Of a stretch of DNA of 64,000 nt, positions 4,965 to 44,194 are shown one piece after another. Source of the stretch: Minisyncoccota bacterium. GTDB taxonomy: Bacteria; Patescibacteriota; Minisyncoccia; Phycocordibacterales; PALSA-1337. The stretch spans positions 94,618 through 158,617 of the forward strand of contig JBAZRG010000002.1 in the NCBI GenBank assembly GCA_041663145.1. Direction: 5' to 3'. The notes below the pieces were generated by a model, which was not told the origin of the DNA, did not search any database, and was given only the letters and a program-made list of their open reading frames with translations. Positions within the stretch are counted from its first letter, which is position 1; every line of letters starts with the position of its first letter. The position numbers and the translations under genes are program-made.

Positions 4965-5390
4965 TTGTCATTCTTTGTAAAGATGCACCAAAATGCATCC
5001 CGTCTTCGTCTAACAGTTATGGAAAAGATACAGCCACCACAGGATCTAAAGCAGAATATCCTTTTAGGAATTGCAAAAGAGGAGTTTCGTCGCGCAAAGA
5101 TCTACTTCACTGTAGCTGTAACGGTATTGCCGACATCTTTGGTTGCAGTATTTTTGTCCGGCAGATATCTCATAAATAGTTTTTATGAATCCGGTTTTTA
5201 CAACTATTTTTCATTGCTGTTCTCCGGAGATAGTACGGTTTTGAGCTATTGGAAGGAACTGGTCTACTCCATGGTAGAAACAATGCCGATCTTGGGCACG
5301 ATCGTATTTTTGATGGCTGTTAGTTTTCTTGTTTGGTCGGGAGCCAATACCATTACAAATTTGCACCGTTTTACTTTAGCAACTAATTAA
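4965..5390 (+). CDS. putative anti-sigma factor / membrane protein
   Basis: It lies directly downstream of the ECF sigma gene, carries a predicted TM helix and has no other motif. The assignment rests on context. Confidence 0.3.
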   Translation: MSFFVKMHQNASRLRLTVMEKIQPPQDLKQNILLGIAKEEFRRAKIYFTVAVTVLPTSLVAVFLSGRYLINSFYESGFYNYFSLLFSGDSTVLSYWKELVYSMVETMPILGTIVFLMAVSFLVWSGANTITNLHRFTLATN

Positions 5391-5396
5391 TCAAAT

Positions 5397-5879
5397 ATGG
5401 ATTATAGAGATATACACAAATCGAAAACAGTGCGAGGAATCCTAATAGGATTGGGAGTTGCCGTCCTTATCCTGGTCATTTTTCAAGCAGGCATGGTTGC
5501 GGGTTATCACAAAGCTAGTTTCAGCGCGCGATTTGGTGACAATTTCGAGAGAAATTTTATTGATCCTCGAGAAGGAGACTTTGGTGGAAAATTTCCCGGT
5601 CCGGGCATGCCGGGCGGACATGGAGCCGTGGGAGAGATTGTTAGTATCATTCTTCCACGAGTCGTTGTAGCCGGCCCTGATAATTTGGAAAAAACTGTTC
5701 TCGTTGGTACGTCGACAATTGTTCGAGAATTTCGAGATGAAATCACCGCAGATCGACTCAAGGTCGGTGATTTTGTAGTAGTTCTTGGTAATCCGAATGA
5801 TAAAGGTGAGGTTGATGCAAAATTGATTCGTCTCATGCCTCCACCACCTGAGCCATCTGGTAGAGCCGTAAATAGATAA
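5397..5879 (+). CDS. hypothetical membrane-anchored protein
   Basis: N-terminal TM segment followed by Gly/Pro-rich and charged regions. No catalytic motif. Confidence 0.3.
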   Translation: MDYRDIHKSKTVRGILIGLGVAVLILVIFQAGMVAGYHKASFSARFGDNFERNFIDPREGDFGGKFPGPGMPGGHGAVGEIVSIILPRVVVAGPDNLEKTVLVGTSTIVREFRDEITADRLKVGDFVVVLGNPNDKGEVDAKLIRLMPPPPEPSGRAVNR

Positions 5880-8347: not shown

Positions 8348-9571
8348 ATGAAAACATCCGACATTATCCACGAAACATATACCGCACTTCTCTCAAATAA
8401 AGTGAGAACCGGTCTTACCATGCTTGGTATTATCATCGGTATCGGATCGGTCATTGCCATGGTTGCGATCGGTCAGGGTGCGCAGGGAACAATACAATCG
8501 AACATCCAGTCTCTCGGATCCAATCTTATCCAAGTGACACCAGGTTCACAGGGTGGTCCAGGATCGCAAGTGAGTCAAGGTCGAGGAAGCGCGCGAACAC
8601 TTACGCATGATGATGCTCAAGCTATCGAGAAAGAAATTTCTTCTGTTCAGGCAGTTTCGGCTGAACTCTCGGGCAGGTATCAAGTGGTCGGCAAAGGGAC
8701 AAATACAAATACAACAGTCATGGGAGCAACTTCTAAATATCCAGAAGTGAGGAATGTTTCTATAGCGGAGGGATCATTTATTTCCGATCAAAATCTTAAA
8801 AGTCTCGGAAAGGTGGCGGTGCTTGGTCCAACTGTTCGTGACGATCTTTTCGGTGAGGGTGCATCAGCTATTGGGCAGACAATACGTATTAGCGGAGTAC
8901 AATTTAAGATTATTGGCGTGACGGTAGCCAAGGGTGGGTCGGGATTTCAAAATCAAGATGATATGATCTTTATTCCACTTACGAGCGCTCAAAAATTCCT
9001 CGTTGGCGATGATTATGTCTCGACTATCGCGGCACAGGCGGTAAGCTCGGATACCATGTCGCAGGCCCAAACGGATATAACTGATTTGTTGCTCAAGCGA
9101 CATAAGATCTCAGACTCCACGTCTGCTGATTTCAGCATTCTCAATCAAAACGATATTGTCGCGACGGCTTCAAGCGTTACACAGACATTTACCATGCTTC
9201 TGGCGGCTGTCGCCGGGATCTCTCTTGTTGTTGGAGGTATCGGCATTATGAATATGATGCTTACGACAGTGACTGAGCGAACGAGGGAGATCGGTCTTCG
9301 TAAAGCAATCGGAGCGAAGAGGTCAGATATCAACAAACAGTTCCTGGTGGAAGCGATTGTAATAACCCTGGTTGGCGGTATTATAGGAGTTGCTCTGGGG
9401 ACTCTGGTTTCATTTGGATTGACCACTTTCGACGTAATTCAGACGAAAGTCTCAATCGGATCAATACTTCTTGCTTTTGGTGTGTCGGCAGTGATAGGTA
9501 TCGTGTTTGGGTATTATCCGGCTCGTCGGGCGGCCGCTTTGAATCCGATCGAAGCATTGAGGTATGAGTAG
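8348..9571 (+). CDS. ABC transporter permease (MacB periplasmic core domain plus FtsX fold)
   Basis: N-terminal TM helix, a large periplasmic domain, and a C-terminal FtsX-like 3-TM bundle (LAAVAGISLVVGGIGIMNMMLTTVTERTREIGLRKAIGA). Confidence 0.85.
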   Translation: MKTSDIIHETYTALLSNKVRTGLTMLGIIIGIGSVIAMVAIGQGAQGTIQSNIQSLGSNLIQVTPGSQGGPGSQVSQGRGSARTLTHDDAQAIEKEISSVQAVSAELSGRYQVVGKGTNTNTTVMGATSKYPEVRNVSIAEGSFISDQNLKSLGKVAVLGPTVRDDLFGEGASAIGQTIRISGVQFKIIGVTVAKGGSGFQNQDDMIFIPLTSAQKFLVGDDYVSTIAAQAVSSDTMSQAQTDITDLLLKRHKISDSTSADFSILNQNDIVATASSVTQTFTMLLAAVAGISLVVGGIGIMNMMLTTVTERTREIGLRKAIGAKRSDINKQFLVEAIVITLVGGIIGVALGTLVSFGLTTFDVIQTKVSIGSILLAFGVSAVIGIVFGYYPARRAAALNPIEALRYE

Positions 9572-35182: not shown

Positions 35183-35332
35183 GCTCGGTGAATATTGTTC
35201 CTCAACGACTCGCAATGCGATTTGAACCCCGAACAAATTGCCCGTATATCAGTAGTTCCATCTGCTGATATACGGTTGCAATTTGGAGTGGGTGACCTTG
35301 CGAGGAGTTGAGGAACAATATTCACCGAGCTC
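35181..35332. repeat. structured palindromic element, family A copy 1 (152 nt)
   Basis: 26-bp perfect terminal inverted repeat (GAGCTCGGTGAATATTGTTCCTCAAC) plus an inner hairpin (CGTATATCAG/CTGATATACG). It begins inside the ligA stop codon. Its core is identical to that of the element at 45288-45438. Confidence 0.65.
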
Positions 35333-35442
35333 TGATATATTATCTCGTATATAAATTCTCGGAAGACAAATTAGGATATGGTGAGGAGGGGGTCCTAAAT
35401 CATTACTCGCCGTGTTTATGAGCATATGCTATTATCCACATT

Positions 35443-35745
35443 ATGATTACGATCAAGGAATTGGAACATCTATCCAAACTGGCTCGGATTAAACTCAATG
35501 AAAGTGATATGAAAGCACTCATTTCGGAGTTTGATTCGATCTTGACCTACGTCGACAAACTAAAGAAGGTAAAAGTCAGTCTCGATGCCGAAGAACGCGT
35601 GGGAGTTGTAAAAAATGTCTTTCGAAATGATAAGGTGGAAATGACAAGCGCAAGAGACAGGGAATCATTGTTAAATGAAGCACCAGACCGGGAAGGTGAC
35701 CTCATCGCCGTCCCAAAGATGATCGCTCAAGATGAAAAGATATGA
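35443..35745 (+). CDS. gatC: Asp/Glu-tRNA amidotransferase subunit C
   Basis: About 100 aa. It sits immediately upstream of gatA with overlapping stop and start, and has a GatC-like N-terminus (IKELEHLSKLARIKLNESD). Confidence 0.8.
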   Translation: MITIKELEHLSKLARIKLNESDMKALISEFDSILTYVDKLKKVKVSLDAEERVGVVKNVFRNDKVEMTSARDRESLLNEAPDREGDLIAVPKMIAQDEKI

Positions 35746-37181
35746 AAATCAACACCAAAGATCTGACTATAAGTGAAGTGAATCGACATTTGAAGAATGG
35801 AGATTTTAGTGCGGTTGAATTGGCTGAGGCTTATATGAAAATGATCAGTGAAAAGAATGGCGACATAAACGCATATCTCCAAACTTTCGATGATGCTTTG
35901 GAATCGGCAAAACAGGCGGATCTCGATATCAAATCTTCGAAATCTGGAATGTTGACGGGGATTCCTTGCGCGATTAAGGATAATATCCTATTCAAAGATC
36001 ACATAGCCAGTTCTTCTTCGAAGATACTCGAAAAATATCAGGCACCATATGATGCTACAGTCATGAAGAAACTCAGAAAAGAAGGAGTAGTCGTATTGGG
36101 TCGGACAAATATGGACGAGTTTGCCATGGGTGGATCGACGGAGAACTCGGCTTTTGGTGTTACGAAAAATCCTCTAGATACAAAGCGTGTGGCAGGCGGT
36201 TCATCGGGCGGTTCGGCAGCCGCCGTAGCTATGGATGGGGCATTGTTCGCTCTCGGCTCTGATACTGGTGGATCGATACGACAACCGGCTAGTTATTGTG
36301 GAGTCGTCGGACTAAAGCCGACATACGGAGCGGTTTCGCGATATGGACTCATGGCTATGGGTTCATCACTAGATCAGATCGGGCCGATCACAAAGACGGT
36401 GACTGATGCTCAAATAGTCTTTCGAGCGATTGCCGGTAAAGATGAAAAAGACGGTACTACCATTCCGGATGGTCTCTATTCAGTCAAGACTGTTAAAAAA
36501 AGCGGTAAATTGACTATTGGTATCCCAAGACACTTCATGACCGAAGGAGTCGATCCAGAAGTGTTGAAGATTTTTGATCAAAATATTGAGACCCTGAAAA
36601 ATAAAGGTTACGAGATAAAGGAAATCACTTTACCAAATATCGCACATTCGCTTTTGGTCTACTATATAGTCATGCCGGCTGAAGTTTCATCCAATATGGC
36701 GCGCTTTGACGGAGTCAAATACGGCTTGCGCGTAGACGGTAAAGATGGCATCGATGATTATTTCGAAACTAGACGAGCCGGTCTAGGTAAGGAAGTGATA
36801 CGAAGAATACTTCTCGGCACTTATGTGCTCTCATCGGGTTATTATGATGACTATTACAATCGGGCAAATGCCGTTCGCGCGATGATCACCGAAGATTTTC
36901 GCAAAGCTTTTGAAGATGTGGATCTGGTTGCCACACCGACGGCGCCAACGCCGGCTTTTAAGATAGGAGAGAAGACAAATGATCCTTTGTCTATGTATCT
37001 CGAGGATATATTTACAGTACCGGCAAATCTGACCGGACTTCCGGCTATCTCTGTTCCGGGTGGATCTGTATCCGTAGACGGAATGAAACTTCCAGTCGGA
37101 TTCCAATTGACCGCGAGACATGGCAGAGAGGATGATCTGTTCTTTGCCGGCAAGGATTTGCTCGGTGAAAATCAAAGTTGA
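35742..37181 (+). CDS. gatA: Asp/Glu-tRNA amidotransferase subunit A (amidase signature family)
   Basis: Amidase signature GGSSGGSAAAVA... with Ser-cisSer-Lys, and KDNI near the N-terminus. Size is 479 aa. Confidence 0.92.
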   Translation: MKINTKDLTISEVNRHLKNGDFSAVELAEAYMKMISEKNGDINAYLQTFDDALESAKQADLDIKSSKSGMLTGIPCAIKDNILFKDHIASSSSKILEKYQAPYDATVMKKLRKEGVVVLGRTNMDEFAMGGSTENSAFGVTKNPLDTKRVAGGSSGGSAAAVAMDGALFALGSDTGGSIRQPASYCGVVGLKPTYGAVSRYGLMAMGSSLDQIGPITKTVTDAQIVFRAIAGKDEKDGTTIPDGLYSVKTVKKSGKLTIGIPRHFMTEGVDPEVLKIFDQNIETLKNKGYEIKEITLPNIAHSLLVYYIVMPAEVSSNMARFDGVKYGLRVDGKDGIDDYFETRRAGLGKEVIRRILLGTYVLSSGYYDDYYNRANAVRAMITEDFRKAFEDVDLVATPTAPTPAFKIGEKTNDPLSMYLEDIFTVPANLTGLPAISVPGGSVSVDGMKLPVGFQLTARHGREDDLFFAGKDLLGENQS

Positions 37182-37200
37182 TTTGAGGTATAATATTGCA

Positions 37201-37776
37201 ATGGATTCCAATCTATTTCTTTTCAAAGACAATATCATCATCGAAACTCTTGTAAAAGCTTTTGATTTTATTCCAGCAATTATTCTGTTCTTCAAAAATG
37301 CTGGGGGATTCCTGATCGGGCTTTCTCTAGTGCTATCTCTATTTTTCTTGATCGGCATCATCTATTGCGTGGAAAGACTCAAAATTCTTCGTATCAAGGA
37401 AGAAGAGAAGTATGATCTCAAAGTTGAGCCTGCAATCGAAAAGGCAACACCGGGCGATATGGCACTGACGCGTCGTTGGGAAGAAGCCAAAAAACTCATC
37501 GGTTCGGCAAATGAGAATGACTGGAGACAGGCTATCATCAATTGCGACATAATTCTCGATGATCTTCTCGAGAAGATGGGCTATCGCGGAGAAAGTGTCG
37601 GTGAAAAACTAAAGCGTGTGGTAACAGGGGATATGAAATCACTTTCGGATGCCTGGGAAGCGCATAAGATCAGAAATCAGATCGCCCACGAATCGGGATT
37701 TGTTCTTGATCACCATATTGCCAAAAAAGTGTTTAGTCACTACAGGAAAGTGTTTGAAGAGTTTTATTATGTATAA
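37201..37776 (+). CDS. membrane-anchored hypothetical protein with HEPN-like motif (RNQIAH)
   Basis: Two N-terminal TM helices. The C-terminal domain ends ...WEAHKIRNQIAHESGF, matching R-x4-H. I trimmed the ORF to the ATG at 37201. Confidence 0.35.
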   Translation: MDSNLFLFKDNIIIETLVKAFDFIPAIILFFKNAGGFLIGLSLVLSLFFLIGIIYCVERLKILRIKEEEKYDLKVEPAIEKATPGDMALTRRWEEAKKLIGSANENDWRQAIINCDIILDDLLEKMGYRGESVGEKLKRVVTGDMKSLSDAWEAHKIRNQIAHESGFVLDHHIAKKVFSHYRKVFEEFYYV

Positions 37777-38275
37777 GTAATTTTTAGGAAAAATTAAAAC
37801 CCCGCCTATCGCTTGAAGCAACAGATGGGGTGTGTGAAAGTTTTCTTAATGTGACAAATTGTGTATAAGTCCGCTGACTAACACATTGCATCTGCGCAAC
37901 AGGGACAGCGTGCCTCGTCCAGTGACTTCTACGAGGCCGATCAGATAGGGTATAGTCGGTATGATCATACTCACCGATGACCACAAGAAGTTTTGTGGTT
38001 GACAGAGGCAAAGCACTAGCAGTGTGAATATGAAGCTTATTGGTACGAACAATACGAAATATCCGATTCGATCGGACATGTCGTAGATTTTTGTCCGTTC
38101 CTCAAACTTCTCTACGAATCGACTCTTCATTAGTCATCTTTCTCCTTGCTTTCAAGGTGAATTTCCAGTGTGAATACTAGCACGTTTTGTGTTTGTGTAT
38201 TTAAAGACCTAATAGTCAAAGAATGGATCAAAAAACCGCCCTTCGACTGTGCTCGGGGCGGTTGTGAATGAGACT

Positions 38276-38815
38276 TTAGAAGATAAAATCTTGAATTAAG
38301 CTCGTGATAATGACGGTCACACAAGCAATGTCCACTGCAAGCTCCTGGGGCTTTGGTTTTAGCGTCCCATGATCATGTCGGTATTCCCAGACGCCGATAA
38401 AGTCACTCAAGTGCTCGTTTCTCGACAGAGGCCACAAACAGGATTGATCGATGCTTCTGAATTTCCTGTTACAGTGAGTCATTCCATCTATTATAATGTG
38501 AATGCCTATCGCCGCAATGAGTGCGATGAAGTAGAAAATGATCCTTGGACTTTCTAGCGTCGTAGTGAAAAGAAAATAAAGAGTAAATATCCCAAAGACG
38601 AATACTGAGTGGGACATTTCTTTTAGGACCAGAGCGATGTGATTCTGCCGAGCGAGTGGCTGTCGTCCTCGTATCTTGTCGAGGAGGAATTGGGGCACCA
38701 TCACCATGTCCGGTAAAACCGAACCAATGGCGAAGGCACCTGCTATATCGTACCTGTTTGGGTACAAGAGTAACGATAAGCTCGTTCCGAGAACTAGGTG
38801 AGTATATGTCTGCAT
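38276..38815 (-). CDS. hypothetical polytopic membrane protein (possibly metal-dependent membrane hydrolase-like)
   Basis: 4-5 TM helices and several His/Asp residues (IIIDGMTHCN, HDHG). The family is not identified. Confidence 0.3.
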   Translation of the reverse strand: MQTYTHLVLGTSLSLLLYPNRYDIAGAFAIGSVLPDMVMVPQFLLDKIRGRQPLARQNHIALVLKEMSHSVFVFGIFTLYFLFTTTLESPRIIFYFIALIAAIGIHIIIDGMTHCNRKFRSIDQSCLWPLSRNEHLSDFIGVWEYRHDHGTLKPKPQELAVDIACVTVIITSLIQDFIF

Positions 38816-38891
38816 AAGACCTCCATATTTTGTCCCAAGTTATGTCAAATAAAACCAAGTCAATATTGGCATTAAAGTTAGAGTGTGTCAA

Positions 38892-38922
38892 CTTGTTGCA
38901 CAGGTAGGACGGGATTGGCATC
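38892..38922. repeat. 31-bp direct repeat, left copy (CTTGTTGCACAGGTAGGACGGGATTGGCATC)
   Basis: A second copy at 41880-41910 is identical over 27 of 31 bp. Together they flank the helicase/Zn-ribbon gene. Confidence 0.8.
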
Positions 38923-39087
38923 AAATAATGAAGGAAGTAAAAAGCATCTCTGAATTAGCCATAGAAGCAATAATAGCGAGCGTTGACGAATAACTTATTG
39001 TATGATAGGGTAATTTTGGCTTTCGGACTATATTTTTATTGATTTTTGACAGCCAAATATAGTAAACAGAAAACAAAAAGGAACGTG

Positions 39088-41757
39088 ATGATAACGCCAC
39101 ATGACTATCAGTGCAATCCGATTGTCATGATCGGTGAGGCACTGAAAGCTTCAAAAAAGGCTTTGGTTGTGATGGCGACTGGCACGGGTAAAACTGTTGT
39201 CGGCGCGTTCGCAATCAAAGAACCTTTGAAGCTGGGTCGAGGATTATTCCTCTGCCACAACAACCGTATCCTTGAACAATCCATGAAGCAATTCGCGGAA
39301 GTTCTCGGGCCGGAAGTGACCCTCGGGGTCTTCCATGGTGAGAAGAAACACTGGGACGAAGTAGATATCCTCTTTGCGTCCTTTCAGACCTTTGTGGACT
39401 GGAAGCATGCATTTTTCGAGGATGAATTCCGCTTCGTCATAGTTGACGAATCCCACCATAGTCAAGCAATTACATTCAAGGAGGTCATCGAATACTTCAA
39501 GCCGGCTGAGCTTTTGGCTCTCACGGCAACACCCGATCGAATGGATCAGAAAGACATCCGTGAGATCTTCGGGCAGGAAGTGGTGAATATAACTCTTGAA
39601 GAGGCGATCGGTAAAGGGTGGTTAGCTCAAGTTGAGTATCACCTTGTCACCGACAACCTCAATCATTGGGAACTGAAGAAGCTCGCTCGTGAAGTGCTGG
39701 AGGTGGGAAAGAAAATTTCCCTCAAACAGCTTAACGAAACGATCTTCATCAAGGCTCGTGATGAAAAAATTGCTGAAAAAATTCAAAGCTACGGGAAGAA
39801 AAAGACGATCGTCTTTTGCGAGAGCATAGTTCACGCAGAGAACTTTCAGAAGTTCCTTCCCCGATCCAAGGTCTACCACTCAAAAGTAAGCATTGGAAAA
39901 AATGAAGAAACCTTAAATGAGTTTCGCAGTGGCGAGTGCCAATGCATCCTAGTCGTTGATAAATTCAACGAAGGTCTCGACATTCCCGATGCCGAACTGA
40001 TTGTATTCCTCCGTTGCACCGACTCTAAAACAGTCTACCTGCAACAGCTCGGTCGTGGACTTCGCAAAACCCTGAATAAGGATAAAGTGATTGTTCTCGA
40101 CTTCGTCGGTAATACGGAACGTGTCATGATGATTCGTGAGATGATCGAAAAGGTTAAGTTCTTCACTATAAACTGGGCGGAGCTCGAAAGAAACCCGCTT
40201 CATGTCCAAGGTGACGGATTCGATTTCGTCTTCACGGATGAACTGATTGACTTGTTCAGTGTTCTCCAACGTCTGCAACTACGATACATCTCGGACGTTC
40301 CCGAACTCCTCGCGGAGTATTCGGATAAAAACGAACTGTTGCCAAGTGAGGTAGTTGCCGGAACGATGAGGAGGCTTTGGTGGGTATGCTCCAAGTGTGG
40401 GCATGAATGGCTCACCAGCGGTTCACACCGCCTTCGAGCCAAATCAGGTTGTCCAGCTTGCCTTAATAGAGCTGTCACCTCCAAAAACAACCTTGCCGTC
40501 ACGCATCCCGAGTTAGCTAAAGAATACTCTCCGCGGAATCTTCTGCCAGCGACGCAAATAATCGCTGGTTCGATGAAGAAACTGTGGTGGAAGTGTTCGA
40601 AGCCAGAATGTGGACATGAGTGGCAGGCAACCGGAAATGCTCGTCTAAGGGGCGGCAACATTGTTGGCTGTCCAGCATGTTGCAATAGGGTTGCAGGTGC
40701 CAAAAACAACCTTGCCGTCACGCATCCTGATCTGGCTAAAGAATATTCGCCACGGAATCCTCTGCCGGCTACAAGCTTTGTCGCTGGTACAAACAGGAAA
40801 CTGTGGTGGAAATGTCTGAAACCAGATTGTGGATATGAATGGCAGACAACTGGGGCAAATCGAGTGTCGGGAAAGGGTTGTCCAGCCTGTTGTAACAGAG
40901 CGGTAACCCCAAAGAACAACCTCGCTGTCACGCATCCAGATCTGGCTAAAGAATATTCGCCACGGAATCCTCTGCTGGCAAATCAAATCGTTGCTGGCTC
41001 GACGAAGAAACTATGGTGGAAATGCTTGAAACCAGAATGTGGACACGAGTGGCAAGCAACTGGGTTAAGCCGAGTGTCAGCAGGAACTGGCTGCCCAGCA
41101 TGCGCAGGTAACGTTGTCACTCCAAGAAACAACCTGACTGTCACCCATCCTGATCTGGTTAAAGAGTACTCACCGAAAAATCTGTTGCCCGCGACACAAG
41201 TTAATCCTGGGACAAACAGAAAGCTTTGGTGGAAGTGTTCAAAGCCGGAATGTGGACACGAGTGGCAAGCTTCATGTTACCATCGAACCAAGGGTGTTGG
41301 GTGCCCAGCTTGTGTAAACAAGGTCGTCACTACAAAAAACAACCTAACGGTTACGCATCCGGAATTGGCTAAGGAGTATTCACCAAAGAATTCGTTGCCA
41401 GCGACACAGGTCGTTGCGGGAACAAACAAAAAACTCTGGTGGAAGTGCTCAAAGCCAGAATGTGGGCACGAGTGGCACATCGAAGGAAGTGCTCGGGTTC
41501 AAGGTTATGGTTGTCCGGCGTGTGTAAACAAGGTCGTCACTACAAAAAACAACCTCGCTGTCACTCATCCGGAGTTGGCGAAAGAATATTCACCACGGAA
41601 TCCTCTGCCAGCAGATCGAATTATTGCCGGTTCAACGAAGAGGCTCTGGTGGGTTTGCTCCAAATGTGGGCATGAATGGCTTACAAGTGGTTCACACCGC
41701 GCTGTAAATAAATCGGGTTGTCCAAAGTGTTGCAATCGTGGGAGAAAAACTCCTTAA
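39088..41757 (+). CDS. SF2 DEAH-box helicase (type III restriction res-subunit-like) fused to seven tandem zinc-ribbon repeats
   Basis: The SD sequence AAGGAA lies 5 nt before the ATG at 39088. Helicase motifs are present: I (MATGTGKT), II (VDESHH), III (LTATP) and VI (QQLGRGLR). Seven repeats of about 53 aa follow, each with WW-x-C-x-K(PE)CGHEW...GCPAC. Confidence 0.8.
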   Translation: MITPHDYQCNPIVMIGEALKASKKALVVMATGTGKTVVGAFAIKEPLKLGRGLFLCHNNRILEQSMKQFAEVLGPEVTLGVFHGEKKHWDEVDILFASFQTFVDWKHAFFEDEFRFVIVDESHHSQAITFKEVIEYFKPAELLALTATPDRMDQKDIREIFGQEVVNITLEEAIGKGWLAQVEYHLVTDNLNHWELKKLAREVLEVGKKISLKQLNETIFIKARDEKIAEKIQSYGKKKTIVFCESIVHAENFQKFLPRSKVYHSKVSIGKNEETLNEFRSGECQCILVVDKFNEGLDIPDAELIVFLRCTDSKTVYLQQLGRGLRKTLNKDKVIVLDFVGNTERVMMIREMIEKVKFFTINWAELERNPLHVQGDGFDFVFTDELIDLFSVLQRLQLRYISDVPELLAEYSDKNELLPSEVVAGTMRRLWWVCSKCGHEWLTSGSHRLRAKSGCPACLNRAVTSKNNLAVTHPELAKEYSPRNLLPATQIIAGSMKKLWWKCSKPECGHEWQATGNARLRGGNIVGCPACCNRVAGAKNNLAVTHPDLAKEYSPRNPLPATSFVAGTNRKLWWKCLKPDCGYEWQTTGANRVSGKGCPACCNRAVTPKNNLAVTHPDLAKEYSPRNPLLANQIVAGSTKKLWWKCLKPECGHEWQATGLSRVSAGTGCPACAGNVVTPRNNLTVTHPDLVKEYSPKNLLPATQVNPGTNRKLWWKCSKPECGHEWQASCYHRTKGVGCPACVNKVVTTKNNLTVTHPELAKEYSPKNSLPATQVVAGTNKKLWWKCSKPECGHEWHIEGSARVQGYGCPACVNKVVTTKNNLAVTHPELAKEYSPRNPLPADRIIAGSTKRLWWVCSKCGHEWLTSGSHRAVNKSGCPKCCNRGRKTP
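40306..41745 (+). repeat. about 159-bp tandem coding repeats (7 units) encoding zinc-ribbon modules
   Basis: The repeats are near-identical at the nucleotide level (CTTGCCGTCACGCATCC.GA..TGGCTAAAGAATA.TC.CC.CGGAATC recurs). The first and last units resemble each other most closely. Confidence 0.8.
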
Positions 41758-41762
41758 TCACC

Positions 41763-41800
41763 CCGTAAGTTGACCTCAAGTCAGCTTACGGTTTTTTTGT
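41763..41800 (+). terminator. rho-independent terminator after the helicase gene
   Basis: CCGTAAGTTGAC...GTCAGCTTACGG hairpin followed by TTTTTTTGTTTG. Confidence 0.65.
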
Positions 41801-41879
41801 TTGTCATTGGAATCATAAAAATATCCCTTACCTTCAATGTAAAAGTGTTATTTTATGAGACGTGTCCTTCTTGTTGCAC

Positions 41880-41910
41880 AGGTAGGACGGGATTGGAATC
41901 TTCTAGTCCA
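41880..41910. repeat. 31-bp direct repeat, right copy
   Basis: CTTGTTGCACAGGTAGGACGGGATTGGAATC. It pairs with the copy at 38892-38922. Confidence 0.8.
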
Positions 41911-42053
41911 AAATATTAAACAGTTATATGAATTAAATCAATTATTATAAAAAAAGGAAACCGCCAGCGAACTGAAACCGACGGGTTCCGATGTTCGTGG
42001 CGGATTATTGTTGCTAGTTTGATGCTAAGTTCTTATTTTTTGACAGATTATTT

Positions 42054-42347
42054 CTACTGTTCATCAAGCCACTTTGAGATTGCACCCACATCTAGTCCAA
42101 CAGGAGCATTGTCGAATTTCTGTACGGTGACATTGCCCCATGGGTGATAATCTCCAGCTGGAAACCAGCTTTCAATGGTCTGTTCATCGGGATGTGCATT
42201 TGAGTAGATGACGACATAGCACCCACAGGCTCCAACAAATAATAGGCCAGCGTGGTCAATTGCAAAATTTGCAGCCCTCAATACCCACCAATCCGTAGAT
42301 GCAAAAGGACTTATTCTGTGTCCATGTATTAATCTTGTAACTTTCAT
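42054..42347 (-). CDS. hypothetical protein (97 aa)
   Basis: ORF with His/Cys-rich segments (LIHGHRI, VGACGCYV). A hairpin plus T-tract terminator lies on the minus strand around 41950-42006. Confidence 0.3.
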   Translation of the reverse strand: MKVTRLIHGHRISPFASTDWWVLRAANFAIDHAGLLFVGACGCYVVIYSNAHPDEQTIESWFPAGDYHPWGNVTVQKFDNAPVGLDVGAISKWLDEQ

Positions 42348-42480
42348 ATACTCCTTTTCTTTTTAGAGGTTTAACTGCTCTCTCGGACTCATTTAGTGCT
42401 AGAGAGAGCGGCCAAATAACAGAGAATATCAAAATCTATACCATAAGTATGGTAGCATATTATGAGATATAAGTCAAGCT

Positions 42481-42554
42481 TGTTGCGGGGAGCGGAATCG
42501 AACCGCTAATTTTCAGGTTATGAGCCTGACGGGTTACCGTTACCCTACCCCGCG
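42481..42554 (-). tRNA. initiator tRNA-fMet (CAU)
   Basis: The reverse complement reads CGCGGGGTAGGGTAACGGTAACCCGTCAGGCTCATAACCTGAAAATTAGCGGTTCGATTCCGCTCCCCGCAA. It has the C1xA72 mismatch and closely resembles the E. coli tRNA-fMet acceptor arm. CCA is not encoded. Confidence 0.8.
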
Positions 42555-43258: not shown

Positions 43259-43433
43259 ATAACCATTCACCACAACAAAATACCTCAAGTTGTTTTTGTG
43301 TCGATATTCATATATGATTTCAAACATTCGCGTTGGATCATTGAAATCATTTAGTGTACAGAAGTAAATATAAGCCGATGTAGCTGTCTTGGTAGCTCTG
43401 ACGCAAATCATTTAGTGTACAAAAGTAATACAA

Positions 43434-43699
43434 GCCGATGTAGCTCAGTTGGTAGAGCACGCCATTGGTAGGTCGTAAGACCCTGCCCATTTCGGTGGTA
43501 ACGCCGAGATGAATCCCGAATAACGGTTAAAGTCCCGAGAGTAGTCGAGGGATAAGACCGTGGCGTTTCGATTTTATCGAGACGCCCGAACGACTGACAA
43601 GGGTCTCCAAACGTTGGAGAAAGATACAGTCTAGTCCTCCCGTAAGGTGAGGTGTAAACGAATGGCGAGGTCTCCGGTTCAATCCCGGACGTCGGCTCC
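43434..43699 (+). tRNA. tRNA-Thr (GGU) interrupted by an intron of about 191 nt in the anticodon loop
   Basis: 5' exon: GCCGATGTAGCTCAGTTGGTAGAGCACGCCATTGGT. 3' exon: AATGGCGAGGTCTCCGGTTCAATCCCGGACGTCGGCTCC. The exons join into a perfect cloverleaf with anticodon loop TTGGTAA. Confidence 0.75.
43470..43660 (+). ncRNA. group I (self-splicing) intron in tRNA-Thr anticodon loop, no internal ORF
   Basis: The exon ends in U and the intron ends in G. GCCGA about 30 nt into the intron can pair with the exon TTGGT as P1. AAGATACAGTC matches the group I S/P7 element consensus AAGATATAGTC. CGAACGACTGACA resembles the R element. The size is similar to the small Azoarcus-type tRNA introns. Confidence 0.65.
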
Positions 43700-43735
43700 T
43701 TGTTTGTTAAAGTGTGTTTCGATATACTCCTTCTA

Positions 43736-44194
43736 ATGCCGATGCCAAGAAAGATTCGTAATATGTGTCTTATGTGCGGGAATGAGCCAGCCCGTCCATC
43801 ATACAAATATTGTTGTAATTCGTGTCAGCTTGAGTTTCAGCATCTTGAATATATTCGTAAATGGAAATTAGGAGAATTAAATGGACTTAGCAGTATTGGT
43901 ACAGTCTCTGTTCATGTGAAAAAGTACTTGAGAGAGAAATATGGTAACAAATGTATCCTATGTGGCTGGTCTGTAGTAAATACAAAGACTGGTCTGGTTC
44001 CACTAGTTGCAGATCATATTGACGGCAATTGGCGAAACAATTATGAGAGTAACTTGCGTCTCATTTGTCCAAATTGTGATTCGTTAACAGCAACTTATGG
44101 TGGTTCCAATAAAGGTAACGGTAGAACAGGGAGAGTTGTTAGCAAAAGAGTCCTTGAAGGAAAAAAGTTTGTATTGCTTTCTACGCCGATGTAG
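43736..44194 (+). CDS. HNH endonuclease (free-standing, between the two tRNA-Thr genes)
   Basis: CMCGNE...CNSC zinc knuckle followed by CILCGW...LVADHIDGNWRNNYESNLRLICPNCD, an HNH core. The start may be the ATG at 43736 or 43763. The stop codon lies inside the following tRNA. Confidence 0.7.
   Translation: MPMPRKIRNMCLMCGNEPARPSYKYCCNSCQLEFQHLEYIRKWKLGELNGLSSIGTVSVHVKKYLREKYGNKCILCGWSVVNTKTGLVPLVADHIDGNWRNNYESNLRLICPNCDSLTATYGGSNKGNGRTGRVVSKRVLEGKKFVLLSTPM

Follow-up and report, generated by a model that had tools for sequence, protein, structure and literature searches.

The 64,000-nucleotide stretch of a Candidatus Paceibacterota genome analyzed here (the window; contig JBAZRG010000002.1) contains a 2947-bp segment, bracketed by a 31-bp direct repeat, whose sole gene encodes a superfamily 2 (SF2) motor joined to seven predicted zinc modules. 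We see an even chance that this segment is a horizontally mobile single-gene module, inserted in a variable region beside a tRNA-fMet gene, and that the 31-bp repeat is its footprint. The repeat pair, with its sharp bounds, is genuine and well above chance. The segment and its ends are composed as follows.

38892–38922, plus strand: left repeat copy, CTTGTTGCACAGGTAGGACGGGATTGGCATC, adjoining the −35 hexamer of a divergent promoter-like site that belongs to a YdjM-family gene.
38923–41869, no strand assigned: repeat-enclosed segment of 2947 bp, with 165 nt 5′ of its single gene and, past the terminator of that gene, another 72 nt.
39043–39087, plus strand: upstream control region with TTGACA at 39047–39052 and an AAGGA Shine–Dalgarno sequence; 84% identical to the region 5′ of the closest homolog (L001).
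39088–41757, plus strand: helicase gene of 889 codons, the only gene inside the repeats.
41763–41801, plus strand: intrinsic helicase terminator, a hairpin with a 12-bp stem (41763–41791) followed by seven T; the hairpin is conserved in L001.
41870–41900, plus strand: right repeat copy, ending in …GGAATC and lying between two convergent terminators.

The repeat, CTTGTTGCACAGGTAGGACGGGATTGG(C/A)ATC, is present in exactly two copies in the window, as an earlier note made from the letters alone had reported. The copies are identical at 30 of 31 positions, position 28 being C on the left and A on the right, and their starts lie 2978 bp apart rather than the 2988 bp first given. No further copy is found in the window at up to three mismatches, where none is expected (100 shuffles), and a third copy is missing even at relaxed stringency. 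The mutual similarity of the 170 nt flanking each side of the two copies is at the level of shuffled sequence, so the bounds of the repeat are sharp. The left junction is reproduced by L175, an independent Logan assembly from this organism that matches window positions 35290–40758 with 100% identity; L175 is the only other contig found with the YdjM neighbor gene, and it terminates inside the helicase gene. The earlier note had asked whether the 31-mer might be a generic repeat. It is not: neither 256 other loci nor the metagenome collection nor the IMG/VR contigs contain the sequence, and exact scans of the metagenome and viral collections with 24-mers and 21-mers gave no match. Rfam returns no credible match, and hence no known RNA family, in either of the intergenic regions that hold the repeat copies.

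Four other origins for the repeat were considered and rejected. The reverse complement of the 31-mer resembles the T-loop and acceptor end of a tRNA, and GCAACAAG(+TTGAC) is common to it and to the 3′ end and flank of tRNA-fMet. However, GTCAA(G)CTTGTTGC is all that the 31-mer shares with the tRNA-fMet 3′ flank, and the alignment score of 21 is within the window background. The Rfam tRNA covariance model matches neither copy at E-values up to 10, and alignments of the 31-mer to 45 tRNAs are weak; for these reasons an origin as a tRNA fragment or att site is unsupported. A CRISPR-repeat-like duplication does not fit two copies 3 kb apart with no array and no cas genes seen. Transposon ends were discarded given the lack of inverted repeats and of end sequences common to this cassette and to the one described below. 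A longer ancient duplication was set aside because the flanks are dissimilar; a match to TTTTTGACAG, 16 nt out of register, is at the chance level.

Between the repeats, the segment is self-contained. As the earlier note had it, a single gene is enclosed with its own Shine–Dalgarno sequence (AAGGA, 6 nt 5′ of the ATG) and terminator, and no recombinase accompanies it. The encoded protein is identical to NCBI MFA6315263.1, from a 187-kb contig of a Candidatus Paceibacterota metagenome-assembled genome. The gene was also correctly described as GC-richer than its surroundings, with a GC content for the segment of 0.47 versus 0.418 for the window, which places it in the top 5% of equal-sized windows. 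The excess is modest, and in the zinc-finger half of the gene it falls at codon position 2 and therefore reflects an amino-acid composition rich in Cys, Gly, Pro and Ala.

The segment lies in a stretch of DNA that is specific to this lineage, with these neighbors.

37777–42481, no strand assigned: lineage-specific 4.7-kb stretch, running from orf218 to the 3′ end of tRNA-fMet and absent at this position in related Patescibacteria.
38276–38815, minus strand: YdjM-family membrane protein gene, the left neighbor, with a promoter-like −35 at 38891–38886 directly beside the left repeat.
42054–42347, minus strand: orf97, the right neighbor, without a family match and alone in its database cluster; its terminator is at 41961–41984 (minus strand).
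42482–42554, minus strand: tRNA-Met(CAT), taken to be an initiator tRNA on the basis of its C1/A72 ends, with its 3′ end towards the lineage-specific stretch.

The 4.7-kb stretch holds a 94-aa open reading frame (ORF; minus strand), YdjM (minus), the helicase (plus) and orf97 (minus), each with its own terminator. In four related loci (L004, L005, L012 and L002) the order is ligA, gatA and orf218, followed by tRNA-Met after 22–685 bp; in L004, L005 and L012 the gap between orf218 and tRNA-Met is 22–130 bp, versus 4.7 kb in the window. There is thus a break in synteny between orf218 and tRNA-fMet. The two closer relatives among these, L004 and L005, have no helicase at the corresponding locus within about 9–10 kb. 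We also note that orf218 itself (37120–37776), which has no Pfam match, is found directly 3′ of gatA in many Patescibacteria (L002–L017) with 30–62% identity, and on this sequence pattern it appears to be an uncharacterized conserved partner of the gatCA locus.

The helicase belongs to a very large family. A search with the full-length protein recovers 6,231 proteins at E-values up to 1e-3, with PF14311 in 114 of the 120 best matches listed, and a search with the motor only recovers 1,351 at E-values up to 1e-40. Most proteins with this motor come from Patescibacteria; the source names of the members are Patescibacteria, Paceibacterota, Moraniibacteriota, Azambacteria and Parcubacteria. The motor–array architecture is common in databases and already catalogued in Pfam and NCBI, although the family is uncharacterized, and our literature search found no paper on a helicase–DUF4379 fusion. 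The present case is in this sense a well-documented example of the architecture and not a surprise.

Several observations address the spread of the family. Across 11 distinct family loci the neighbors are all different and there is no conserved partner gene; the neighbors are housekeeping or unknown genes, not defense genes, with one locus, read as a gene list only, having a serine recombinase and a type I R subunit nearby. On shared contigs, the helicases are 57–62% identical versus 53% for GatA, 50% for FtsE and 31% for FtsX. A 56%-identical copy is present in an archaeal contig beside aIF-2 beta. The higher identity of the helicase than of GatA, FtsE and FtsX, the varied neighbors and the archaeal copy together show horizontal transfer: the family moves horizontally and its reach includes archaea. 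A tRNA gene lies within 1 kb in 5 of the 11 family loci, where a rough estimate, not a measurement, of the expectation in such genomes is ~10%. No family member is present in IMG/VR, where matches are to the motor only and of up to 34% identity, and a phage origin of the gene is rejected on this basis. Among PLSDB plasmids, no match covers 80% or more of the protein, and the best matches listed cover the array only. When the metagenomes were scanned with the alignment of the family, most matches were to distant motors, and only two family loci were added. The archaeal-contig homolog (L169, 6001–8703) is 900 aa long, with aIF-2 beta at 5275–5679 and a type I R subunit upstream; a separate 145-aa ORF consisting of DUF4379 modules alone lies 3′ of it.

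The closest homolog (L001), with a motor 88% identical to that of the window protein, adjoins tRNA-Asn in a different context and without the 31-mer. Its promoter region and terminator hairpin are conserved with those of the window gene: the identity is 84% over 44 nt 5′ of the gene and 87.5% for the hairpin, in which both arms of the stem have changed. The downstream context differs. In L001 (71–2302) the homolog is called as a 539-aa ORF and a 114-aa DUF4379 ORF, the frame changing within the array, which suggests decay or assembly errors in the repeats.

A second member of the family is also bracketed by direct repeats. The L083 homolog, which has four modules, lies between two exact copies of the 18-bp sequence CACCTCCTTTCTAGGGAG (5517–5534 and 8384–8401), the only copies in 14 kb. 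The first 12 nt of this sequence are those of the usual 16S rRNA 3′ end (the anti-Shine–Dalgarno sequence). In another sample, a contig with the same gene (L084) ends 3 nt inside the left 18-bp repeat, and this end could represent a population variant at the junction. For comparison, all 298 ORFs of 500 aa or more in the window and the fetched loci were surveyed for the longest exact repeat that their two flanks, upstream and downstream and each 1.5 kb long, have in common. A flanking exact repeat longer than 16 bp was found for only two ORFs, and both are helicase genes: 27 bp in the window and 18 bp in L083. The corresponding Fisher test, 2/10 family loci versus 0/286 others, gives p ~0.001. 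Two repeat-bracketed copies provide a testable handle on the movement of single genes in genomes that are apparently poor in classical mobile elements.

The insertion mechanism that we infer from this arrangement is as follows. A module consisting of promoter, gene and terminator would have inserted between the orf97 terminator and the YdjM promoter, inside the variable 4.7-kb stretch on the 3′ side of tRNA-fMet of a Candidatus Paceibacterota genome. In the ancestral state a single 31-mer would have been located in the orf97–YdjM spacer, becoming doubled when the 2947 bp inserted; such an arrangement would explain why the right copy now lies between convergent terminators and the left copy just upstream of the YdjM −35. 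The footprint may have arisen by duplication of the target, or it may be the core sequence through which a circular form recombined with the chromosome; the enzymes responsible would be encoded elsewhere. Recombination between the repeats could now also remove the gene.

A number of points weigh against such an insertion. To our knowledge, 31 bp exceeds the target duplications of transposable elements. The segment ends carry no inverted terminal repeats, and no recombinase or transposase is found in the segment or among the 28 other window ORFs scanned. An attC site is likewise missing, with no imperfect palindrome on direct inspection and no Rfam match. The GC excess, as described above, is small and in part a matter of composition. 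Neither an empty site nor an excised circle nor a second strain was found, in a search limited by the lack of a close sequenced relative: the best GatA identities are 67–72%, and YdjM homologs are at most 40% identical. The 18-bp repeat of L083 is unrelated to the 31-mer, and the two cassettes share no end sequences. Flanking repeats are present in only two of the ten testable family loci, the other eight having none, and are not a constant feature of the family. Lastly, in the window and in two other genomes (L087 and L174) the gene is within a few kb of the gatA/tRNA-Met/ftsEX neighborhood, and this proximity in three genomes could reflect long residence with local rearrangement and not a recent arrival. 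The earlier note had proposed a cassette mobilized in trans or an att-like scar, and this proposal stands in part. It is favored by the self-contained module, the non-generic repeat, the lineage-specific DNA beside a tRNA gene, the mobility of the family and the second repeat-flanked homolog. On the other side, neither an empty site nor a circular junction, an integrase or attC-like or inverted terminal sequences were found, and the tests for an att site in the form of a tRNA fragment failed.

Can the repeats be explained without acquisition of the gene? We consider it unlikely that they are the last remnant of an older local segmental duplication or rearrangement around a long-resident helicase gene. 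The L087 and L174 homologs are also within a few kb of tRNA-Met, gatA or ftsEX, and the region holds other small duplications, such as a 61-bp tandem copy with a tRNA fragment (43344–43455). An old duplication, however, is expected to leave graded similarity around its core, and here each edge marks a sharp fall in identity, from 97% to the chance level. As described above, no helicase is present at the locus in the closer relatives L004 and L005, and the L087 helicase is located on the opposite side of the tRNA pair. A quite improbable alternative is that the two 31-mers are functional cis elements under selection, bound by a regulator or by the encoded zinc-finger array itself, and that there is no insertion scar at all. 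Identity at 30/31 positions amid flanks without similarity would suit this explanation, as would the location of the left copy directly 5′ of the YdjM −35 hexamer, a position in which UP elements or activator sites are found, and the repeat length tracks the number of modules in two cases (31 bp for seven modules and 18 bp for four). On the other hand, two data points do not establish a scaling rule, the right copy, placed between convergent terminators, has no gene that it could regulate, and the 31-mer has no significant internal periodicity, as a test for modular recognition showed. Neither a third copy in the 64 kb nor a copy at the locus of the closest homolog was found, and 8 of 10 family loci have no flanking repeat.

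That the repeat pair is a chance match or an assembly artifact is scarcely credible. The window does come from a metagenome-assembled genome, and the right junction has no independent assembly. Against this, no match is expected by chance, the left junction is identical in the independent Logan assembly, and the gene, the terminators and the neighbors are all intact. Moreover, 31 bp is shorter than the typical read lengths of such assemblies, which makes a collapse artifact unlikely. An insertion that left the 31-mer on both sides of the gene is the reading to which we give the even chance stated at the outset.

The protein itself consists of a motor, a linker and an array.

39088–40137, plus strand: SF2 DExH motor, aa 1–350 (ResIII and Helicase_C), with motifs I (GTGKT), II (DESHH), III (TATP) and VI (QQLGRGLR) intact.
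40138–40287, plus strand: helical/beta linker, aa 351–400, between motor and array; its position matches the coupler domain of SauUSI.
40288–41757, plus strand: seven tandem DUF4379 Cys4 treble-clef modules and the stop codon, aa 401–889, with a period of 69–73 aa.

Residues 1–350 match ResIII, Helicase_C, DEAD and SWI2_SNF2 in Pfam. PF04851 (102.9 bits) and PF00271 (57.3 bits) are both over their cut-offs, in agreement with the type III res-like SF2 helicase of the earlier note, which had called it a DEAH protein; motif II reads DESHH and is thus of the DExH type. The protein begins at motif Q/I, with the Walker A motif starting from residue 30, and residues G32, G34, K35, D120, E121, H123, T146, Q320 and R323 are invariant in 64 homologs. 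The best solved relative is SauUSI (7CLG), both by sequence (E = 1e-43) and as the top Foldseek match (E = 1e-21, 27% identity) to an AlphaFold model with a mean pLDDT of 88. RadD, archaeal XPB, a type I HsdR fragment and the type ISP enzyme LlaBIII are the next-best relatives. NCBIfam models for the EcoAI/FtnUII-type R subunit, RadD and archaeal XPB match with E-values of 8e-37, 2e-27 and 8e-14, and the PADLOC models mREase_IV, PbeA and REase_I match in the motor part only, mREase_IV with E = 3e-49 and over model positions 236–573 only. There is no nuclease domain of any type (PLD, HNH, Vsr/EDxHD or other) among the Pfam, NCBIfam and PADLOC matches.

The array was correctly read in the earlier note as seven tandem modules of a probable zinc-ribbon family, and the family name given there is right. 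The array matches PF14311 (DUF4379) in seven stretches (E = 1.3e-97; 320 bits versus a cut-off of 24.5 bits), and the period is 69–73 aa (210–219 nt) and not ~53 aa. Four cysteines (C34, C39, C56 and C59) are invariant in all seven units. Each unit is modeled by AlphaFold as short helices, a beta-hairpin and a helix, and the most variable part of the module is the stretch between the two predicted zinc knuckles. Units 1 and 7 have a CxxC knuckle and units 2–6, which cluster together, a CxxxxC knuckle. That the first and last units are most alike holds for the finger core, where they are the closest pair (77% of nucleotides, 76% of amino acids); it does not hold for whole units, where units 1 and 7 are 58–60% alike and units 5 and 6 are the closest pair.

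Arrays of this type are widespread and appear to be exchangeable. The DUF4379 unit is found in >12,000 cluster representatives, many with 8–16 tandem copies. The 120 closest motors have C-termini made of DUF4379 arrays or of integrase-repeat units (PF14882), and a nuclease domain is found in none of them. One protein (P0084) carries both DUF4379 and PF14882 repeats, a mixed array that, at the level of sequence, indicates shuffling of C-terminal arrays. A large sister group (P0107, P0111 and P0131–P0199) has the same motor with one to five integrase-repeat units and no DUF4379.

From these parts we infer a biological role for the protein. The product would be an ATP-driven double-stranded-nucleic-acid translocase of the SauUSI/type I HsdR/RadD/XPB branch of SF2, in which the seven predicted Cys4 zinc modules would take the place of a target-recognition domain. 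The array would bind nucleic acid, most probably DNA, and would tether or license the motor. The output would be remodeling or displacement rather than cleavage, unless a nuclease acts in trans. On its predicted domains, the protein is best regarded as a translocase that lacks a nuclease and is targeted by an array of zinc modules. It weighs against this description that translocation on double-stranded DNA and DNA binding by the array are predictions from relatives, and that DUF4379 also occurs in mitoribosome proteins of trypanosomes. A defense role is possible, although unsupported by gene context: PADLOC finds no partner genes of known anti-phage systems in the window or in 10 other loci, its only matches being at the motor level, to several unrelated systems, and the resemblance to restriction enzymes is likewise one of motors. 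A housekeeping role in DNA or RNA metabolism is no less possible.

One form of such a role would be that of a housekeeping RNA helicase, or of a factor associated with the ribosome, in CPR bacteria, with zinc modules that bind RNA; this we hold to be unlikely. RNA binding is conceivable for DUF4379, a domain also present in mS66 and in assembly factors of the trypanosome mitoribosome; the helicase family is very common among Patescibacteria, where its neighbors are housekeeping genes (rplJ–rplL, infB, greA and ftsEX), and Foldseek also returns RIG-I-like and DEAD-box helicases. Nevertheless, the best matches in sequence and fold are to the DNA translocases SauUSI, HsdR (EcoAI type), RadD and XPB, those to DEAD-box proteins being far weaker. 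The array is exchangeable with integrase-repeat units, viral and phage DUF4379 or DUF4379-like arrays adjoin DNA endonuclease domains, and the gene has no conserved position and crosses domains of life. A much bolder suggestion joins the array to the flanking repeats: the modules would form a modular reader of long DNA sites, at ~4.5 bp per module, and the repeats would be its own cognate sites, of 31 bp for seven modules here and 18 bp for four in L083. The motor of such a self-recognizing selfish element would load at the boundaries of the element and bring about its own excision, copying or protection. We regard this suggestion as very improbable; if true, it would describe a mobile element that is driven by a translocase in place of a recombinase, with an array that could be reprogrammed by swapping units.

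The translocase description has consequences of its own. The family is very large and, by the literature searched, uncharacterized, and it combines a restriction-type motor lacking a nuclease with interchangeable arrays that are predicted to bind DNA. Its spread is among the ultra-small Patescibacteria and extends to archaea. If these arrays read DNA in a modular manner, they would constitute a further natural programmable DNA-binding scaffold, and their fusion to a motor would be a new means of targeting a translocase.

Some features of the remaining window are also worth recording. In a tRNA-Thr(GGT) gene at 43434–43700, which ARAGORN misses, an insertion of ~195 nt follows the anticodon-loop sequence TTGGTA and splits the gene. 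A homologous insertion with conserved blocks is present at the same position of tRNA-Thr(GGT) in L014 (12835–13091), and the gene is uninterrupted in L004 (13032–13105) and L012 (12052–12124). By its sequence features the insertion looks like a small group-I-like intron, with an Rfam Intron_gpI score of only 15.8 bits (E = 0.38). Just 5′ of the split gene is the ~61-bp tandem duplication mentioned above (43344–43455), which includes a tRNA-Thr 5′ fragment and is a sign of local illegitimate recombination in the tRNA cluster. A 164-aa ORF (43700–44194) directly after the split gene matches HNH/IscB-HNH and zinc-ribbon families weakly, and at 44185 it overlaps the beginning of tRNA-Thr(CGT). This ORF could be a homing-endonuclease-like gene that stands free and is tied to the putative tRNA-Thr intron. 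Further along, an 862-aa protein (53453–56041) contains a Major Vault Protein shoulder domain (PF11978, E = 1.3e-24) and a Vault_3 repeat. Such a protein is unexpected in a Paceibacterota genome, and its gene has a GC content of 0.525 versus the window mean of 0.418.

Among known mobile elements, the segment can be set beside the genomic islands of tRNA genes, in that lineage-specific DNA abuts the 3′ end of a tRNA and a direct repeat brackets part of it. It differs from them in lacking an integrase, in having a repeat that is not a recognizable tRNA 3′ fragment, and in that the repeat-bounded unit is one 3-kb gene. Insertion sequences and non-autonomous transposons are set apart by terminal inverted repeats and a transposase, neither of which the segment has. 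Integron cassettes differ in that the window gene has its own conserved upstream region and terminator and no attC.

For the protein, a parallel is provided by SauUSI, which consists of a PLD nuclease, an SF2 double-stranded DNA translocase motor, a helical coupler and a target-recognition domain (PMC7913695). The window protein has the same order of SF2 translocase, helical linker and C-terminal nucleic-acid-recognition part, and the mREase_IV model matches its motor. However, the PLD nuclease (SauUSI residues 1–191) is absent, the DUF3427/SRA-like target-recognition domain is replaced by seven DUF4379 modules, and the protein shows no evidence of modification dependence or cleavage. Type I R subunits (EcoAI/FtnUII), RadD and archaeal XPB belong to the same SF2 branch and are all DNA-dependent motors. 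The window protein is far under their equivalog cut-offs (127 versus 550 bits for the type I R subunit) and lacks HsdM/HsdS partners, a Bax1-type nuclease partner and the RadD C-terminal domain. RIG-I-like receptors also combine a duplex-tracking SF2 motor with a zinc-binding recognition domain, and LGP2 and MDA5 are among the fold matches, but these matches are much weaker than those to the DNA translocases and have large rmsd values. The window protein has neither the insertion domain nor the CARDs of these receptors and carries seven small modules versus their single C-terminal domain; RIG-I_C-RD gives faint precomputed matches, in relatives only.

The array has its own parallels. Tandem DUF4379/CapR-like modules precede the Vsr/EDxHD nuclease in a new class of homing endonucleases of phage group II introns, where they were proposed as DNA-binding specificity modules (PMC12350094), and in marseilleviruses four DUF4379 domains precede a restriction-endonuclease domain (PMC5513546). 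DUF4379 arrays of phages, including a Klebsiella phage, are annotated as HNH endonuclease or endonuclease and are 25–33% identical to the window array. These viral and homing-endonuclease proteins share with the window protein a zinc module of ~60 aa, in tandem arrays of three to five, but theirs precedes a nuclease, whereas the window array follows a motor and no nuclease is present. The sister proteins with integrase repeats (PF14882), none of them characterized, differ in their C-terminal repeat family but have a motor that is 44–61% identical to that of the window protein, are of similar size and come from the same phyla.

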